Shown here one piece after another: positions 2,914 to 45,419 of a DNA stretch of 64,000 nt (the first letter of the stretch is position 1; every line of letters starts with the position of its first letter). A program made the translations under genes and the position numbers. This stretch comes from Deltaproteobacteria bacterium. Lineage in GTDB: Bacteria; Desulfobacterota; Binatia; UTPRO1. Under the pieces are notes generated by a model. It was not told where the DNA came from, did not search any database, and was given only the letters and a program-made list of their open reading frames with translations. The stretch is taken from positions 207,185-271,184 of the forward strand of contig JADLHM010000098.1 of the NCBI GenBank assembly GCA_020848745.1, read 5' to 3'.

Positions 2914-4083
2914 TCAACGCAACGGACAGGTCGTGGGCGCGTGGCCGACGTACGCGACGCACTGGTTGCAGTGCGTGCAGAGCGTGCCGTCGAAGTCGCC
3001 GGCCTCGATGCGGCGCACCAGATCGGGTTGGCGGATGAGGGCGCGGCCGAGCGCGAGGAGATCGAAGCCCTCGCCGAGGGCGGCCTCCATCGTCGCCTGC
3101 TGGTTCACGCCGCCGAGCAGCATGAGCGGCATGCGGACGGCGGCGCGGAAGCGGCGGGCGAGCGGCGCGAAGAACGCCTCCTCGAAGCGGTAGTTCCGCA
3201 TGACGAGCTTGGCGCCGAAGCGGAGCGCGACGCGCCGGAACGGATTGCGCTCGCGCGCGAAGAGCGCGTCGATGGGCGAGTCGCCGCGCATCAGGAACAT
3301 CGGCGTCTTCGTGGTGTGGCCGCCGGTGAGCTGGAGGGCGTCGAGCGCGCCGTCGGCTTCCAGCATGCGCGCCACCTCGAGCCCGTCGTCGAGCGAGAGT
3401 CCGTTCGCGAAGCCGTCCTCCATGTTGAGCTTCGCCCAGATCGCGACGTCGCGTCCCGCCGCTTCCCGCACGGCGCGCACGATGCGGCGCGGAAAGCGGG
3501 CGCGATTCTCGAGGCTGCCGCCCCATTCGTCGCGGCGGCGGTTGTTGTAGGGCGAGAGGAACTGGCTGAGGAGGTAGCCGTGCCCGACGTGCACCTCGAG
3601 CGCGTCGAAGCCGGCCTCGACGGCGAGCCGCGCCGCCGCCGCGAAGTCGCGCTCGAGGCGATCGAGGTCGGCGGCCGTGAGCGCCCGCGCGAACGTCTGC
3701 GCGTGCAGACTGAAGGTCCGCGACGGTCCGAGCGGCCGCGTGCCGGTCGCCTTCGGGTCGGCGAACCATCCGGCGTGGCCGAGCTGGAGCGCCGCCTTCG
3801 CGCCCTCGGCGTGCATCGCAGCCGCGAAGCGGGCGAGGCCCGCCGCCGCCTCCGGGCGCATCACGATCTGATCCTTGAAGGTGCGGCCGTCGGCGGCGAC
3901 CGCGCAGTACGCGAGCGTCGTCATCGCGACCCCGCCCGCCGCCACCTCGCGGTGCCACTCGACGAGCGCGTCGGTGACGAGCCCGCCCTCGGCGCAGGTC
4001 TCGTAGGTCGCGCACTTCACGATGCGGTTGCGGAGGGTGAGCGGCCCGAGGCGCGTCGGGCTCAGGATCGGGCTCGTCGACAT
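2914..4083 (-). CDS. NADH:flavin oxidoreductase / Old Yellow Enzyme family
   Basis: Internal ATG (MSTSPILSPTRLGPLTLRNRIV) in ORF 2914..4260; OYE-like motifs (HxGHGYLLSQFLSP, GFDxLEVH), TIM-barrel flavoprotein length. Confidence 0.8.
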   Translation of the reverse strand: MSTSPILSPTRLGPLTLRNRIVKCATYETCAEGGLVTDALVEWHREVAAGGVAMTTLAYCAVAADGRTFKDQIVMRPEAAAGLARFAAAMHAEGAKAALQLGHAGWFADPKATGTRPLGPSRTFSLHAQTFARALTAADLDRLERDFAAAARLAVEAGFDALEVHVGHGYLLSQFLSPYNNRRRDEWGGSLENRARFPRRIVRAVREAAGRDVAIWAKLNMEDGFANGLSLDDGLEVARMLEADGALDALQLTGGHTTKTPMFLMRGDSPIDALFARERNPFRRVALRFGAKLVMRNYRFEEAFFAPLARRFRAAVRMPLMLLGGVNQQATMEAALGEGFDLLALGRALIRQPDLVRRIEAGDFDGTLCTHCNQCVAYVGHAPTTCPLR

Positions 4084-4123: not shown

Positions 4124-6241
4124 CTACCGGTGTCGGGCCCCGCGCACCTCCACCGTCGCGCTCGCGCGCGTCCCGCGCGCCGCGTCGACGAGCGCCACGA
4201 CGTGCGTCCCGGGCGTCGGCTGCCAGAGGGCCAAAGCGGCGGCGGACCCGAGGTCGGCATCGTCGACGCGCCAGCGGAGCCCGTCGGCGCCGCCCGCCGC
4301 TTCGAGCGGGACGCGCTGCCGGTCGGCGGGGATGTCGGGGTCGAGCGCGACGATGGTGCCGTCGACCGGCGCCACGATGCGCGCCGCGCCGAGGGTGAGC
4401 GCGCGCGCGCCCGGCTCCGTGCCGGACGCGAGCCACTCGCGGCGCGCCGGCTCGACGCCGTTCGGGAACGCGACCTCCGCGGCGACGAGGCCGGGGGGCG
4501 GTGCGGGTGCGACGCTCGGGGTCGCGCGGTGGAGCCAGCTCATCACCTCGAGCCAGACGGGCGCGGCGCCCATGACGCCGCTCACGTCGTGCATGGGGGC
4601 GCCCGACGCGTTGCCGACCCAGGCGCCGACCGTGTAGCGCTCGGACCATCCGAGGCACCAGTTGTCGCGCATCTCCTTGCTGGTGCCGGTCTTCACGGCG
4701 GTGAAGAAGCGGGTGGCGAGCGCGCTCTCGAGGCCGAAGGTGGCGCTGCGGCCCTCGCGGTCGGCGAGGACGTCGCCCACCTGAAAAGCCGCGGCGGCCG
4801 AGAGCACGCGGCGCGGCGCGGCGGGCGCGCCGTCCCGATGCGCGCCGGTCGGCGCGTCGTCGGCCGACACACGGAGCGGCGACCAGACGCCGCCGTTCGC
4901 GAGCGCGCGGTAGGCACCGACGAGCTCGAAGAGCGTCACGTCGGCACCGCCGAGGGCGAGCGCCGGACCGTAGAACGCGCCCTCCTCGGTCACGCCGGCG
5001 AAGCCGAGGTCGTGGAGCAGCGCCACGAAGGCGTCGCCGCCGACGAGCCCGAGCGTTCGCACCGCCGGGACGTTCAGCGACGACGCGAGCGCGGTGCGCG
5101 CGCTGACGAGCCCGCGGAAGCGGTCGTCGTAATCGCGCGGTCGGTAGAGCCCGCCCGGCACCGCCAGCGCGAGCGGCGTGTCCTCGACCAGCGACGCCGG
5201 CGTCAGCAGGCGGCGCTCGAACGCGAGCCCGTAGAGGAAGGGCTTGAGCGTCGAGCCGGGTTGCCGGCGGGCGCGGACGACGTCGACGAAGCGGGCACGG
5301 GAGAGCATGCCGCTGCCGCCGACCCATGCGAGCACGTCGCCGCTCGCGTTGTCGGCGACGAGCACCGCGCCGTCCTCGACGTTGCGTCCGCGGAGGCCCG
5401 TGAGCGCGCGGACGAGGGCGTCGCGCGCGACGCGTTGGGTAGCGGCGTCGAGCGTCGTCGCGAGCAGCGCGGTGCGCTCGGCGAGCAGGCGGTGCGCGAG
5501 GTGCGGCGCGAGATCGGCGCGCGTGCTCCGGAGCGTCGCGGTCGCGACTCGATCGGCCGCGGCCGAGAGCGCATCGTCGTCGACCTCCGTGGCGCTCGCG
5601 GCCGCGAGGCGCGCGGCGCGCCGCACGACCGTGTCGCGCCCCGCGTTGGGGCCCCGCAACGTAGCCGCCAGCACCAGCGACTCCGCCGTGGCGAGTCCGT
5701 GGGGGGCTTTGCCGAAGAGGAACGCCGCCGCGGCGCCGACGCCACGGAGCTCGCCGCGGAAGCCGACGCGGTTCAGGTACGCCTCGAGGATCTCGTTCTT
5801 CGACCAGTGCCGCTCGATCGCGAGCGCCGCTCGCATCTGGCGGAGCTTCTGCGTGAACGTGCGCCCGCCGCGGGGCGGCGCGAGCGCGGGATCGAGGAGC
5901 GCCGCGAGCTGCATCGTGATCGTGCTCGCGCCGCGCGTCGCGCGACCGGCGAAACGCCCGAGCGCCGCGCCGGCGAGCGCCCGTACGTCGATGCCGTGGT
6001 GGTCCCGAAAGCGCCGGTCCTCGGCGGCGAGCACGGCCGGGACGAGGGCGGGCGACACGTCGGCGAGCGCGGTCCAGGCGAGGCGGCGCTCGCCCGCGTC
6101 GGTGCGAAGCTCGTGGAGGACCGCGCCGCGCCGATCGAGGAGGGGGACGTCGGAGGGGCGGTGGCGCGCGCGGACGGCGTCGAACGAGGGAACCGGGGTC
6201 GTCGCGACCGCGAGCCAAGCGGCGCCCGCGACGGTGAGCAT
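4124..6241 (-). CDS. pbpC: Penicillin-binding protein 1C (transglycosylase + transpeptidase)
   Basis: C-terminal 705 aa of giant ORF 4124..10873; TITMQLA transglycosylase motif, STLKPF (SxxK) transpeptidase motif, KTGT; immediately downstream of alpha-2-macroglobulin gene (classic yfhM-pbpC arrangement). Start (ATG 6239-6241) uncertain; a GTG ~45 nt upstream is possible. Confidence 0.8.
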   Translation of the reverse strand: MLTVAGAAWLAVATTPVPSFDAVRARHRPSDVPLLDRRGAVLHELRTDAGERRLAWTALADVSPALVPAVLAAEDRRFRDHHGIDVRALAGAALGRFAGRATRGASTITMQLAALLDPALAPPRGGRTFTQKLRQMRAALAIERHWSKNEILEAYLNRVGFRGELRGVGAAAAFLFGKAPHGLATAESLVLAATLRGPNAGRDTVVRRAARLAAASATEVDDDALSAAADRVATATLRSTRADLAPHLAHRLLAERTALLATTLDAATQRVARDALVRALTGLRGRNVEDGAVLVADNASGDVLAWVGGSGMLSRARFVDVVRARRQPGSTLKPFLYGLAFERRLLTPASLVEDTPLALAVPGGLYRPRDYDDRFRGLVSARTALASSLNVPAVRTLGLVGGDAFVALLHDLGFAGVTEEGAFYGPALALGGADVTLFELVGAYRALANGGVWSPLRVSADDAPTGAHRDGAPAAPRRVLSAAAAFQVGDVLADREGRSATFGLESALATRFFTAVKTGTSKEMRDNWCLGWSERYTVGAWVGNASGAPMHDVSGVMGAAPVWLEVMSWLHRATPSVAPAPPPGLVAAEVAFPNGVEPARREWLASGTEPGARALTLGAARIVAPVDGTIVALDPDIPADRQRVPLEAAGGADGLRWRVDDADLGSAAALALWQPTPGTHVVALVDAARGTRASATVEVRGARHR

Positions 6242-6303
6242 CGCCGCGCCGAGCGCGGCCGCGGCGCGCGCACGTCTCACGGGGACGATCCGCCGCGCGC
6301 GCC

Positions 6304-9300
6304 TCACGGCGCGACCTCGATCGGCGCGTTCGGGATCTCGCCGAACACGTCGGGCGCGTAGAGCGCCTCGACGCGCGTCGGCGGCAGCGCGAAGCGGCCT
6401 GCCTGGCTCAGCCGCATCGTGTACTCGACGGTGAAGCGTCCCTTCGGCACGAAGTCGTAGTAGGCGCGGAAGCCGTCGAACGCGCGCTCGACGAAGACGG
6501 GGCGCGCTCCCGGGTTTTCCTGCTCGCCGCTCGCGAGCACGGCCGAGTCGCCGCCGAGCCCGGTCCCGAGGTGCGTCGCGCCCGCCGGGATCGGGTCGTC
6601 GACGACGACCCACGTCATGTCGCGCTCGGCGTCGATTTCGAGGCGCACGCGGAGCACGTCGTCGCGGCTGGTCCCGCCGGGCGGGCGCGCCGCGCTCTCG
6701 ACGGGTGTCACGGTCTTCGTGATCCGGTAGCCGGCGGCGATCGGCTGCGTGAGCGGAACCGCGGCGCGCGCCTGGATCGTCGCCCAGGGCCGGCCGCCGC
6801 CGGCGTGCGCGAGGGCGAGCTCGCCCTCGCCTCCGCTCGGCCAGGAGAGCGCGAGGATCGCGCCCGCCGGCGCCGCCGCCCAGTCGAGGGCGCGCTCCGT
6901 GTCGGCGAGCGTGGCGCGGGTCGTGCCGGCGACCGGCGTCGTCTCGAAGGCCGCCGCGAACTTCTCGACCGCGAGCGTGCCCCAGGCGTTGGCGACCGTG
7001 GTCGACCACGCGCCGCGCCGCTGGCGGCCGAGCGCGCCGCGCGCGAGCCGCGGCAGGTCCTCGCGCCATGCGCCGTGCTCGAGGAGCGTCAGCACGAGCC
7101 GGACCGCGTTCACGTCGGCGTCGCTCATCAGCCAGAAGAGGCGGTCGCCGTCCTCGGTCGAGAACGTGAGGCTCGTGCCGGTGACCCGCAGGCGGGCGCG
7201 GAGCTCGTGCTCGACGTCGGCGACGTGCGCCGGATCGGGCTTCTTCGCGATCCGGTGCATCAGGCTCCACCAGTCGATCAAGGCCGAGGTCGGCCAGAGG
7301 CCGGGCTCGACGGTGATCGTGCTCATGAGGGCGGGCTCGACGGCGCCGACCCGCGAGAGCGCCTCGAGCGCCGTGATCTTGCGGAGCGCCAGGTCCGCGG
7401 TCGCGAGCGGCGGCGTGGTCGCCAGGGCGCCGCTCACGAAGCGGCGCAGCCCCTCTTCCATGTCGGCGCGTACGCGCCCGGGGAGCTCGCGACCGGCGGC
7501 GGTCGCGAGCGAGAGCACGTACGCGGTCAGCACCTCGCTGCCTTCCGCGCTCGTCGGGAAGTACTTGAGGAGGCCGTGCGCGTCGGCATACGAGGGCAGG
7601 GCCGTCGCGATCTCGTGCCAGAGGGCGTCGTCGTGGAGCGCGATCGCGCGCGACACGCGCTGCTCGAGGCAGCGATACGGGTAGCGGCGCATGGCGTCGC
7701 GCACGCCGTCGAGCCCGGCGGCGAGGCTCGGCGCGAGCGCCACCCGCACCTCGCCGCGCTCGGGAAGCGCGTCGGCGGGACGCGCGACCGGCTGGCGCGC
7801 GCCGTCCGCGTCGAGCTGGAGGAGCGCCGCCTGGAGCGTCCGCACCGGCACGGCCGGCCGGACCTGTTGCGCGACGCGCACCTCGTCGGCGGGCGCGCCG
7901 GCGGCCGTCGCGGTGACGGTGTACGTCAGCTGCGTGACGTCGGCCGGCGCGGTCATGTCCCAGCCGACGATCGCCGAGGCGTCCGCCGGCAAACGGACCG
8001 TCTGCGGCGCGAGGGACGGCACGGCGCGATCCGCCCGCGAGCCCCCGGCCTCCACCGTGCCCGCCACCGTCAGGTCCGCGGCGTGGCTGGTCGTGTTGCG
8101 CACGGTGAAGGCCGCGCGGAAGCGGTCGCCCTCGCGCACGAGCGGGGCGAGTCCCGGCAGGATCATGACGTCCTGGGTGGCGCGGATCGACGTGCCGCCG
8201 GTGCCGAAGCGGTCGAGGCCGCTCGCGGCGACCGCGACGATGCGGAAGCTCGTGAGCGAGTCGTTGAGCGGCACGTCGACCGTGGCGCGGCCGCGCGCGT
8301 CGAGCGGCACGCGCGCCTTCCAGAGGAGCAGCGTGTCGAAGAGCTCGCGCGTCGCGCTCCGACCGCCGCCGCCGCCGGCCGGCAGCGCCTTCAGCCCGTA
8401 GTGGCGCTTGCCGACGACCTGCATCTGCGCGGTCGCGGTCGTGACGCCGTAGGAACGCCGCCCCATCATGGCGTCGAGGAGCTTCCAGCTCTCGTTCGGC
8501 GCGAGCTCGAGGAGGCCGGCGTCGACCGCCGCGAGCGCGACCTCGCTGCCGGGCGCGAGCGCGGTGCCGTCGGCGGCGCGCACGGCGATCTTCACTTGCG
8601 CGGTCTCGCGCACGCGATGGACCGGATGGTCGGCGGCGACGCGGACCTTCAGCTCGTGCGCTTTCCAGCCGACGGCGAGCTCGGCGATGCCGAGCTTGAA
8701 GGTCGGACGCCCGAGATCGACGAGCGCGGTCGGCTGGACGTCGTCGGCGCGGCCGCGGAGCGCCAGGACCGACACGAAGACGTTCGGCGCCCACTCGGGG
8801 CGGATCGGCACCTCGATCACCGGATCCGTGCCCGCGAGCGCGACCACGCGCGCGTCGGCGACGCCCTCGCGCTCGATCGTGACGAGCGCGGTCGCGGCGC
8901 GAAACGGCATGCGCACCTGGAGGCGCGCCGTCTCGCCGGGCTCGTAGCGGCGCCGCTCCGGCAGCACGTCCATGCGGTCGCTGTCGCTGCCGCCGAACCA
9001 CCAGCGTCCTTCCTTGCCGGCCACCCAGACGTCGTGGTGCGCCGCCGAGCGCCGGCCGGACTCGTCGGTGGTCGACGCCTCCAGCACGACGTTGCCGGTG
9101 ACGCCGGCCGGCCCCTCGCAGTGGAGGAGCCCGTGCGCGTCGGTCGTGCCGCGGCAGACGGTGCCGAGCCGCTTCGTCTCGCGCACGCTGTCGTAGGCGT
9201 AGAAGCCGCCGACGACGCGCGTCCGGTGCGAGAAGAGCTTCCGCGAGAACGCGTCGACCCGGACCGGCGCGCCCGCCACGGGCGCTCCCCGTGGATCGAC

Positions 9301-28468: not shown

Positions 28469-28659
28469 GGTGGGCTCTCCCTTTGTGACGCGAGGCGCGG
28501 CAACGTGTCGCGGGCGCATCGGATCGGCGAAGTCGTCACACCGTAGGCGAAGCGCCTCGGGATCGGCAAGCGAAATCTCGGGCGAAACGAGCGACCGTGC
28601 GCCGAAGTGTCTCAGTGCAATTCTCGCAAGGCGGAGTGATGCGGAAGCGGTGGCCGCAG

Positions 28660-28787
28660 GTGGGCGGGTCGAGGCGGGCCTCTACGGTCGCCGGGGTCCT
28701 GCCACCCGGCGCGTACGACCCGCCGGTGCTTCTCTGTCTTGTGCACGACGCGAGCTGCGGCTCCCCGAGGTCCGCCCCGACCCACCC
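28660..28787. repeat. ~130-bp hairpin-forming MITE-like element, copy A (termini GTGGGCGGGTCGAGG...GAGGTCCGCCCCGACCCACCC)
   Basis: Read directly; ~20-bp terminal inverted repeats; inverted copy of 28908..29037 (35-bp identical core CTACGGTCGCCGGGGTCCTGCCACCCGGCGCGTAC at 28682-28716 vs reverse complement of 28981-29015). Confidence 0.6.
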
Positions 28788-28907
28788 GTCTGCCGCAGCA
28801 GACCTCATTCTTCGTGATTCTTCGTGCGGGCATCTTCGTGCCGCCGTCGGATGCGGCACGGCGAGTCGGCGCGCTGGTCGCTCGGGCCGTGCTGCGACGC
28901 TTCGGCG

Positions 28908-29037
28908 GTGGGTGGGTCCAGGATGGTGCCGGGGAGCGGCAGCTCGCGTTGTGCGCAGGCCAGGGCGGCACCGGCGAGCTGTACGCGCCGGGTGGCAGGA
29001 CCCCGGCGACCGTAGGCACTATCCTGGACCCACCCAC
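28908..29037. repeat. ~130-bp hairpin-forming MITE-like element, copy B (inverted orientation)
   Basis: Termini GTGGGTGGGTCCAGGATGGTGCC ... GGCACTATCCTGGACCCACCCAC (22-bp stem, 1 mismatch); overall ~75-80% identical to reverse complement of copy A. Confidence 0.6.
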
Positions 29038-29158
29038 CGCCGACACCGAACGCAGGCGGCTTGCGACAGACCGAGGCTCTGCTGCATGATCGAACCGAGG
29101 CGCCACCCGTGCGCCGCCGACTTGCAACACGGGGCGCCGACCGGCAGCCTGGCCTGTC

Positions 29159-43562: not shown

Positions 43563-44300
43563 TCACGGTGTTTCGGTTTCCGTCGGTGTCGGTGACGCTT
43601 CGGGCGTCGGGGTTTCGTCCGGGCTTTCGGTCGGCGTCGGGCTGACCGTCTCGACTGCGGTTTCGGTCACGGTCGGCGTTGCGGTCGGAGTGACCGGCGG
43701 CGTGGCAGTGCGCGTCGCCGACGGGGTCACGGTACGCGTCGGTGATGGCGTCGCGGTGCGGGTCGGGGTCACGGTGCGCGTTCGCGTCGGGGTCACGGTG
43801 CGGGTCGGTGTCGGCGTGGCGGTGCGGGTCGGCGTGAGCGTCCGGGTAGGCGTCAGGGTCGGCGTGGGCGTGGCACTTTCCGTCGGGGTGGCCGTGAGCG
43901 TCGGCGTCGCGGTGCGCGTCGGGGTCGCGGTCCGCGTCGGTGTCACGGTGCGCGTCCGGGTCGGCGTCACGGTCCGCGTTGCCGTCAGCGTCGGGGTAGC
44001 AGTGCGGGTCGGCGTGGGGGTGCGGGTTCTGGTCGGCGTGCCGGTGCGAGTGGGCGTCCCGGTCGCGGTCGGTGTTGGCGTGTCGGTCGGCGTTGGCGTT
44101 GGGGTCGCGGTCGGCGTGTCGGTGGCGGTGGGCGTCGGTGTCGGCGTTGGGGTCGGCGTGGGCGTGGGGGTGTCGGTCGCGGTCGCGGTCGGCGTGTCGG
44201 TTGGCGTTGGCGTTGGGGTCGCGGTCGGTGTGTCGGTGGCGGTGGGCGTCGGTGTCGGCGTTGGAGTTGGCGTGTCGGTCGCGGTCGGCGTCGCCGACGT
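43563..44300. repeat. Tandem degenerate short DNA repeats (GTCGGCGTGGGCGTG-type) encoding the Pro-Thr tail
   Basis: Directly visible periodic GGCGTSGSGGTS units over ~740 bp; open in multiple frames. Confidence 0.7.
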
Positions 44301-45419
44301 GATCGGGGTCGTCGGGTACGCCGGCGTCGGACAGGGGAGGCCGCTCGCGTCGGCCTCGATCGTGGCCAGCAGCGAGGGGCTTTGCGGAACGGCCGCTCGC
44401 AGAATGGCGAGACTCGCGCAGGTGTGGCTGCGGACGAGACATTCCGTGTACCCGGACAGCGATTCGACCGCGGTGTCGAATGCGAGGCACTGCGGTGCGA
44501 CGGTCGACAGGTGGGCGCCGCTCGGAGCGAGCAGCGTGGCGAACGGGACGGCACCGCATCTGCGCTCGATGTTTCGCCGGAAGCGGACCGTCGCATCGGC
44601 GAGGTCGGCTCGCCATATGGCGCACCGCCGCGCGCCGCGCTCGAGACACCCGGAACCGCCAGCTTCCCGACGGCAGGCCAGCGCCGCTTCGAGGCAACGC
44701 CGATCTCCGGCCAGTCGGCGCCCGAGGAGGCCGGCGCCTTCGACTCCGACGGCATCGATACACTTCGTGAGCTCGGGAACGGCGGGATCGAACGTGCCGT
44801 CGCCGCCGTAGTCCGCAAGGCAGGCGGCGTCTCCGAGGTCGACGCCGTTCAGACGCAGCAGCTCGCCGGCGCGCGCGTGCTCGAGGACGAGCACGCGGTC
44901 GCTCTCGCACGCATGGCGCCGCGCGATGCATGCCGCGATCGCGCCGTGATCGTCGAGCGTGAGGCCGAAGTCGGCCCAGCAGCCGTCGGCCGCCTGTTGG
45001 TGCCCGAGCCCGCTGGCGTCGAGCATCTCGGTGAGGGAAACCGTCGTCGCGTTGCAGCGCCGAAGGATCCTGCGGGCGAATCGCCGCGTGTCCTCGGCGA
45101 GCGCGGCGCGCGTCGCGACGCACGTGGTTTGTGCGTGATTGCGGCACGCGTCGCCGCCGGGATGGATACGAGCGCACCATGCGACGGCGCGAAGGCATCG
45201 GCCGAGCCGCGTCAACCGCGTCGTGACCGCGCGTGCGCCCGCTCGGGTGATGGCGCGCGCGCAGAGGTCGAGCCGTGCGAGCGCTTCGGCGCGGACCGGT
45301 CGCACGACCGCGCCACTCGCGGCGAACGAGATCAGGAGCGCCAGCGCGATCGTCACACCGCGGCGCGGGGTGAGAAGGGGGACGCGGGGGGACAGCATGG
45401 AAACGAGGGAAGGGAGCAT
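43563..45419 (-). CDS. Secreted protein: N-terminal tandem Cys-rich domains + long Pro-Thr-rich tandem-repeat C-terminal tail
   Basis: Signal peptide (…[24 protein letters not shown]); two copies of a Cys-rich domain ending CIARRHAC / CLVRSHTC; C-terminal ~250 aa of [16 protein letters not shown]… Opposite strand is also open (Gly-Val-rich) so strand assignment rests on signal peptide and domain similarity to 54947..57682. Confidence 0.55.

Follow-up and report, generated by a model that had tools for sequence, protein, structure and literature searches.

The window analyzed here, a 64,000-nt stretch of contig JADLHM010000098.1 from a Deltaproteobacteria bacterium of the UTPRO1 lineage in Binatia, contains a pair of inverted hairpin-forming sequences in the gap between two divergent genes. 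The gap (28469–29158, 690 nt) is bordered on the left by a carboxylesterase gene (COesterase, PF00135; 26849–28468, minus strand) and on the right by a gene encoding an SNF2-family helicase (PF00176 and PF00271; 29159–32980, plus strand). A CxC...CxH SWIM-like motif is seen at the N-terminus of the helicase, and its homologues carry the name SWIM zinc finger protein. These assignments bear out the original prediction, made from the sequence alone, of a 690-bp gap between divergent carboxylesterase and SWIM-SNF2 genes. That prediction also described two ~130-bp elements in the gap that are reverse complements of each other at ~75–80% identity, share a 35-bp identical core, and form either a pair of mobile repeats resembling miniature inverted-repeat transposable elements (MITEs) or a structured regulatory or small RNA locus.

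A repeat search returned the two arms (28659–28787, designated H1, and 28910–29038, designated H2) as the longest inverted repeat of the window; they are 129 nt long, 79% complementary, and 122 nt apart, and their alignment contains the 35-nt identical core (CTACGGTCGCCGGGGTCCTGCCACCCGGCGCGTAC), so both of these observations were reproduced. The two units are predicted to fold as long hairpins, as had been proposed. H2 has terminal arms of 29 nt (28902–28930 and 29015–29043) that are 97% complementary, and its predicted fold reaches −112 kcal/mol (z = −8.6) on the plus strand and −102 kcal/mol on the minus strand; the corresponding values for H1 are −81.1 kcal/mol (z = −4.2) on the minus strand and −77.6 kcal/mol on the plus strand. 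A transcript of the whole element would be predicted to form one 200-bp foldback (−349 kcal/mol, z = −13). Within the window, the hairpin-end motif is found at this single locus. The sole public contig carrying the esterase protein, from the Logan collection, begins inside the 35-nt core, a sequence present in both hairpins at which a k-mer assembler would be expected to stop; the repeat family disrupts short-read assemblies.

The 504-bp block and its absence from a relative

A scan with the SNF2 protein identified one close relative, the metagenome-assembled genome (MAG) "Deltaproteobacteria bacterium SJ588", with a protein 88% identical over the full length; the other matches did not exceed 52%. 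SJ588 has the same divergent esterase/SNF2 pair, but the intergenic region measures 164 bp compared with 690 bp in the window. When the two intergenic regions were compared by blastn, the flanking DNA was 89–90% identical and homology broke at window positions 28597 and 29117, with 519 nt between the breaks in the window and 7 nt in SJ588. Both hairpins, together with ~55 nt on their left, 122 nt between them, and ~70 nt on their right, therefore represent one indel, and the locus shows a presence/absence polymorphism in which SJ588 is syntenic but lacks the block. The 690-bp gap amounts to a 164-bp divergent promoter region interrupted by a 504-bp insertion. A perfect 8-bp direct repeat (CGTGCGCC) adjoins both ends of the block and is interpreted as a target-site duplication (TSD); its left copy (28596–28603) marks the exact border of the indel in the comparison with SJ588, and its right copy (29108–29115) is followed by the restart of SJ588 homology at 29117. 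In a second relative, with an SNF2 gene 82% identical in DNA, the upstream gene is different, homology to the window starts at 29121, and no element-like sequence was seen upstream of SNF2. The notion of a regulatory or small RNA locus fixed at this site finds no support in its stated form, the block being absent from the orthologous SJ588 region.

The mobile unit spans 28604–29107 (504 bp) and consists of a left inverted repeat with leader, H1, a spacer, H2 in inverted orientation, and a trailer with the right inverted repeat. The left terminal inverted repeat (TIR; GAAGTGTCTCAGT, 28604–28616) and the leader of which it is part (28604–28658, plus strand) are homologous to the leader of the dispersed family described below (GGTACTGTCTCAGTTCGATTCTCGCGGCAGCGG...GGTGGCAGCC), and the TIR equals the family consensus at 12 of 13 positions. 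H1, element A of the original prediction, has its module sense on the minus strand; it was recognized from its fold and by covariance model R1 (28653–28796, minus strand, 112.6 bits, E = 6e-22). H2, the former element B, has its module sense on the plus strand and was recognized in the same way (28901–29044, plus strand, 141.3 bits, E = 3e-28). The stem of H1 is H1-like and its interior is of the H2 type (CCCGGCG, GAGCCGCAG). In the central spacer (28788–28909), homology to the family spacer (GCGAGTCTGCGCG...GTTGTGATGCCTCGCC) is found in the right half (GCGAGTCGGCGCG...GCTGCGACGCTTCGGC), and positions 28807–28840 hold three direct repeats (ATTCTTCGTG, ATTCTTCGTG, and ATCTTCGTG) that are absent from the family consensus and specific to the window copy; this triple repeat is also the AT-richest stretch of the intergenic region. 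The trailer with the right TIR (29039–29107, plus strand) is homologous to the family trailer (GGCGACACCGCC..CTCACGAACAGACTGAGACACTACC), and its end segment is duplicated internally (CGACAGACCGAGGCTCTGC ... CGAACCGAGGCGCCACC). The right TIR itself (ACCGAGGCGCCACC, 29094–29107), read from the sequence, equals the consensus at 10 of 14 positions, and in alignment with the family ends the unit finishes with ..GAGGCGCCACC at 29107. The GTGGG...CCCAC repeats that the original prediction took for element termini are accordingly internal stems, and the real ends are the outer 14-bp TIRs with their single 8-bp TSD.

No coding capacity was found in the element, as only shadow open reading frames (ORFs) cross the 504-bp unit, and a chimeric six-frame translation of H2 gave no match at E ≤ 10 among 5.8 billion proteins. 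The giant shadow ORFs across the insertion are artefacts, and the two hairpins make up most of the unit. The target DNA to the left of the element (28583–28604, CGAAACGAGCGACCGTGCGCCG) shows a likeness to the right end of the element plus TSD (29091–29116, CGAACCGAGGCGCCACCCGTGCGCCG) that extends past the 8-bp duplication and may be fortuitous or hint at a target preference.

A dispersed family with shared ends

Metagenomes were scanned with the hairpin ends alone as the query (GGTGGGYGGGTC-N95-125-GACCCRCCCACC). The scan returned 79 stretches, where base composition alone would lead one to expect a handful; the spacing was usually exactly 131 nt, and the majority came from samples Ga0163144, Ga0163151, and Ga0163152, several to a contig. 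Of the 80 matches, 62 had interiors clearly homologous to the hairpins of the window, and at least 46 pattern-exact hairpins lay on 34 contigs of sample Ga0163144. Around the hairpins, the layout leader-H1-spacer-H2-trailer was found in at least 38 units elsewhere. A leader, (GGTA)CTGTCTCAGTTCGATTCTCGCGGCAGCGG..GGTGGCAGCC, stands 5′ of the first hairpin, which has the orientation of H1 in the window; a spacer of ~85 nt (85–120 nt in the general layout of the element) separates it from the second hairpin in the orientation of H2; and a trailer ending ..CGAACAGACTGAGACACTACC lies 3′ of the latter. A profile of 449 positions built from 38 units matched the window at 28605–29051 only (231 bits, E = 7e-69), and the nhmmer alignment begins at 28605, which corresponds to model position 3. 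The profile match and the shared layout together identify the window block as one complete family unit. The original prediction of a mobile repeat, as opposed to a unique locus conserved in synteny, is upheld by this dispersal in a related population, by the TSDs, and by the empty SJ588 site.

The consensus ends of the family (GGTACTGTCTCAGT and ACTGAGACACTACC) form an inverted match at 13 of 14 positions, and the 14-bp TIR consensus is GGTA[C/G]TGTCTCAGT. Perfect 8-bp TSDs adjoin these ends at loci L136 (GAGGTCCG), L146 (GTCAGTCC), L154 (CGTGCTCC), and L140 (CCCCGTGG), and the duplication at L086 agrees at 7 of 8 positions, a level that none of 110 mismatched left/right flank pairings reached. 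Many other, older copies have decayed TSDs. L154 also carries a 127-bp internal-deletion derivative (6094–6220) in which only the ends and a hairpin stub are kept, with a perfect duplication (TGGAGATT) on both sides, and this suggests that the outer ends are enough for mobility. Further variants include a unit with one hairpin only (L099, 10743–10947) and one with a tandem second hairpin (L083); together with the mini-element, these are products that would be expected of recombination between repeated modules.

Model R1 detected 107 modules in 525 kb of family-bearing loci, scoring 105–170 bits on the module strand versus 30–57 bits on the opposite strand. Among ~65 units, none overlapped an ORF with coding-like GC content at third codon positions, and, with crude gene calls, every gene-orientation context was represented. 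At 68–79% DNA identity, some of the contigs with family copies show synteny to other parts of the window, which places the abundant copies in a relative and at different sites. One such contig matches the window genes at 23.4–26.7 kb and has a unit adjoining an abhydrolase gene. Homologues of one window protein carry the names Deltaproteobacteria bacterium, Polyangiaceae bacterium UTPRO1, and Candidatus Binatia.

Searches for a known identity were negative. Rfam 15 was applied at gathering and permissive thresholds to the window and 12 family loci without a family match, the best sub-threshold match being a plant miRNA model (E = 0.23). ARAGORN predicted no tRNA, though the leader has a T-loop-like sequence (GTTCGATTC), and blastn in distant mode against a plasmid collection gave no match. 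The exact 23-mer of the core (CGCCGGGGTCCTGCCACCCGGCG) was absent from genome, metagenome, and viral collections; this core variant is specific to the window copy and hence uninformative on the family. A literature search on MITEs in Myxococc* and on the 12-mer found nothing relevant.

The same 12-nt ends (GGTGGGTGGGTC...GACCCACCCACC) also border a second family of 119–120-nt hairpins with an unrelated interior (e.g., L094, 9590–9708), found at L085, L091, L094, L110, L120, L123, L124, L130, L137, L139, L145, and L152. In every copy, the stem extends outward by 19–30 bp that are perfectly complementary and copy-specific. L110 and L120 are orthologous loci at which the hairpin lies 12 nt past a stop codon, and their outer stems differ at several positions, with both arms changed. 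The second family has no Rfam match. AT-rich hairpins of 127–148 nt with GGTGGGTGGGTC/GACCCACCCACC ends were seen as well, in contigs of 35–44% GC (L096, L100, L131, L135, and L160); their shared ends may reflect either coincidence with the search pattern or an end motif in wide use. Elsewhere in the window, positions 43658–44317 are occupied by 29 overlapping imperfect repeats, spaced 12, 18, or 24 nt in a long array with a period of 6 nt, which probably represents low-complexity sequence within a protein-coding gene, and positions 517–913 hold 69-nt repeats (GTCGCAGACGTCGCCG...) in a gene whose product has a faint match to thrombospondin type-3 repeats (L168).

Conservation and strand bias of the hairpin modules

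Among family copies, mean pairwise identity is lowest in the two terminal repeats (0.49 and 0.48) and rises through the trailer (0.57), leader (0.70), and spacer (0.76) to H1 (0.90) and H2 (0.92); in this comparison, the ends of H2 (not those of H1) were selected by the search pattern, and shortened copies lower the values for the unit ends. Within the modules, the loops are hypervariable and no variation is seen in GGGGAG and CGACCGTAG, the unpaired bases of the junction. In the outer helix, both sides have changed at 16 of 26 pairs, and pairing is retained in 98.3% of cells; none of 500 shuffles reached either value, and a slid control did not come close. These double changes are mostly a single H1-versus-H2 difference inherited by many copies, with few independent events.

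Mismatches in the outer helix, read in module orientation, comprise 66 G·U cells versus 12 A·C cells. The bias is present in each module separately (32 to 2 in H1 and 23 to 4 in H2, over 10–14 columns each), and in the inner helix, consensus G·U wobbles turn into G-C or U-A in some copies. The window copy contains two G·U pairs in H1 on the minus strand and one in H2 on the plus strand, and these account for the better folding of those two strands relative to their opposites. Since H1 and H2 show the bias on opposite DNA strands, it cannot be explained by replication bias, by one read-through transcript, or by a single-stranded transposition intermediate. The pattern hints that the strand leading from the spacer out to each end is constrained, whether as RNA or as DNA. 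A possible −10 motif, GTGATG, occurs 6–10 nt upstream of the 5′ end of each module in the family consensus and is not kept in the window copy; scans of two family units and of the window predicted neither a sigma-70-like promoter nor an intrinsic terminator.

Nature of the element and its setting

Taken together, the block at 28604–29107 is very probably one copy of a non-autonomous, non-coding, MITE-like transposable element of ~450–500 bp, and the family to which it belongs is new, in a Binatia/UTPRO1-like lineage. The assignment to the MITE-like class is based on size, lack of coding capacity, TIRs, a TSD of constant length, dispersed intergenic copies, and the empty orthologous site. The original prediction was right in proposing a non-autonomous mobile family and mistaken in resolving the locus into two separate elements, as the hairpins belong to one 504-bp unit. 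According to this interpretation, the element would have inserted between back-to-back core promoters of the esterase and SWIM-SNF2 genes, duplicating 8 bp (CGTGCGCC), after a transposase supplied in trans had cut or copied it at the outer repeats. Both hairpins would have moved together as internal modules. The interiors of H1 and H2 in the window copy appear to have been homogenised afterward, probably by gene conversion between the inverted modules, which would account for the 35-nt identical core and for the H2-type interior within an H1-like stem. The right end is partly decayed, and the window copy is therefore probably no longer mobile.

Several observations weigh against this interpretation. 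The TIRs are the least conserved part of the family (~48%) and the hairpins the most conserved (90–92%), a pattern that simple neutral decay of a MITE would not predict, and only 4 of 8 positions of the empty SJ588 site (CGCTCCCG) agree with the TSD. The 64 kb of the source genome contain a single unit, and multicopy status is shown only for the related metagenome population. Neither the SNF2 protein nor one from the right edge of the window is on record, and contigs carrying a left-edge protein are short. Model R1 found no modules in SJ588, in the second relative, or in 116 kb surrounding one conserved gene of five additional relatives (including UTPRO1 MAGs and a 7-Mb genome), leaving 138 kb sampled from relatives without a copy. 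End-motif scans of the window and ~0.8 Mb of loci revealed no autonomous element or transposase with these ends; a pair of ends at L150 (6352 and 7668) was considered as an autonomous partner and rejected, being two units that flank an ordinary gene.

The imperfect empty site is what would lend some weight to the view that the block is an ancestral, fixed regulatory palindrome that SJ588 lost by deletion between short direct repeats, because SJ588 has no intact 8-mer and direct repeats at indel borders are also typical of slippage deletions. This view is highly unlikely given a family dispersed at many unrelated loci with their own 8-bp TSDs, a second relative that has no such sequence upstream of SNF2, and conserved putative promoters that lie outside the block. 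Two independent insertions of a 130-bp MITE in opposite orientations, as the original prediction had it, are less credible still and can be set aside almost completely. Each hairpin does have long inverted arms of its own, and a 7-bp direct repeat, GCCGCAG, surrounds H1 (28653–28659 and 28792–28798), but these positions correspond to leader and spacer sequence of the family (GGTGGCAGCC and GGCTGCATC) and not to target DNA. H1, spacer, and H2 recur with homologous leader, spacer, and trailer in the units at unrelated loci, one TSD encloses the whole block, the comparison with SJ588 indicates a single indel event, and a solitary hairpin without leader or trailer was never seen.

A further proposal adds to the mobile element instead of excluding it, namely that the element carries, in its modules, structured RNAs with a function or single-stranded DNA structures specific to one strand. 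Read outward (H1 leftward and H2 rightward), each module would form a three-way junction on a basal stem of 24–29 bp and might serve as a 5′ leader, stability element, or processing element for flanking transcripts. The excess of G·U over A·C, arising separately in H1 and H2 on opposite strands, is consistent with such a role, as are the wobbles that become G-C or U-A, the compensatory changes in the outer helix that no shuffle equaled, the invariant junctions beside hypervariable loops, and the far better conservation of the modules than of the transposon ends. The better-folding strands of the window copy are those of the proposed sense, and the family consensus offers GTGATG as a possible −10 motif. 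Against these stand the lack of a predicted promoter or terminator, the absence of the −10-like motifs from the window copy, the negative Rfam search, and the origin of most double changes in one inherited difference between H1 and H2. Selection for cis-acting DNA among active transposon lineages could also conserve the modules, and a read-through transcript would give the 200-bp foldback instead. On balance, a module function at the RNA or single-strand level is possible but not probable.

Other classes of element were considered and rejected. A 5′-untranslated-region element does not fit, since the conserved promoter-like sequences are located beyond the insertion and SJ588 lacks the block. 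Guide RNAs with programmable loops, such as the IS110 bridge RNA, are not indicated, as the loops do not match their own flanks (the longest match averages 6.5 nt, versus 6.9 nt for the flanks of other units). A retron was dismissed because no reverse transcriptase gene is nearby, and an attC site because no attC-type core sites are visible in the sequence. The presence of TSDs and of two-fold symmetry does not fit a single-strand IS200/IS605-like element, and units of 131 nt with outer repeats and 8-bp TSDs do not fit a repetitive extragenic palindrome (REP) or REPIN.

Bacterial MITEs with long hairpins include the Correia elements of Neisseria, which duplicate TA, and the ERIC sequences of enterobacteria, at 100–160 bp. 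Like these, the family is non-coding, intergenic, and, in the related metagenome population, multicopy, with TIRs, a TSD, presence/absence polymorphism, and the capacity to form hairpins if transcribed. It differs in its length of ~450–500 bp, in its two inverted 131-nt three-way-junction modules with separate 14-bp outer repeats, in its 8-bp TSD, and in having internal modules better conserved than its ends. REPINs are REP doublets mobilised by RAYT transposases, with REP units of 20–40 nt, no separate terminal repeats, and no TSD. They resemble the family in that the replicating unit is an inverted doublet of hairpin repeats and not a single repeat, but the modules here are 131 nt long and are accompanied by outer repeats and 8-bp TSDs. 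The IS200/IS605-derived PATEs, which are associated with omega RNAs or reRNAs, are likewise non-autonomous, carry conserved (subterminal) hairpins, and may be linked to structured RNA; they have neither TSDs nor TIRs and their hairpins act on one strand, whereas the present family has TSDs and a strand bias with two-fold symmetry.

No cognate insertion sequence (IS) is known for the family. IS26 has ends GGCACTGTTGCAAA and an 8-bp TSD, and IS6-family ends read GG(C/T)(A/T)CTGT; the family ends begin GGTACTGT, and this likeness of only ~8 nt, with the 8-bp TSD, makes IS6/IS26 a candidate mobiliser. No transposase gene of any family was found next to the family ends in the loci scanned. IS256, ISL3, and IS1595 are families with 8–9-bp TSDs and are equally open as mobilisers.

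Blocks conserved among the window, SJ588, and the second relative suggest two core promoters, both just outside the element. The putative SNF2 promoter (29122–29151, plus strand; TTGCAA-N17-CAGCCT) is conserved in all three genomes and stops 7 nt ahead of the SNF2 start codon. The longer string TTGCAAC-N17-CAGCCTGG, directly 5′ of this start codon, is also kept in the three (window, 29122–29158; SJ588, 3964–4000; second relative, 4933–4971) and may be the promoter of a leaderless or near-leaderless SNF2 mRNA. The putative esterase promoter (28541–28569, minus strand; TTGCCG ... TACGGT) lies in a block conserved between the window and SJ588. A sigma-70 consensus scan of the window gave no site above its thresholds, including at the putative SNF2 promoter. 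In the second relative, the SNF2 orthologue (5001–8868 of an ENA contig, L082) is broken into five called genes, which looks like the result of frameshift errors in long-read assembly and not like a real pseudogene. The putative −35 boxes of the two genes are ~40 bp apart in SJ588; in the window, the insertion lies ~5 bp upstream of the putative SNF2 −35 and ~35 bp upstream of the putative esterase −35. The element would thus push apart two back-to-back promoters.

It is conceivable, albeit doubtful, that the element is more than a selfish MITE and that its modules are three-way-junction RNAs transcribed outward from the spacer and kept by selection at most copies, a reading consistent with the center-symmetric G·U excess, the invariant junctions, the hypervariable loops, and modules better kept than ends. 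If true, each insertion would equip the genes on its flanks, at this locus the esterase and the SWIM-SNF2 helicase, with a structured 5′ leader or an outward promoter, and the family would act as a mobile cassette. The conserved modules and their G·U asymmetry provide a concrete case for probing RNA-level constraint on MITE hairpins, and in this uncultured high-GC lineage the family offers a useful marker for recent genome dynamics.

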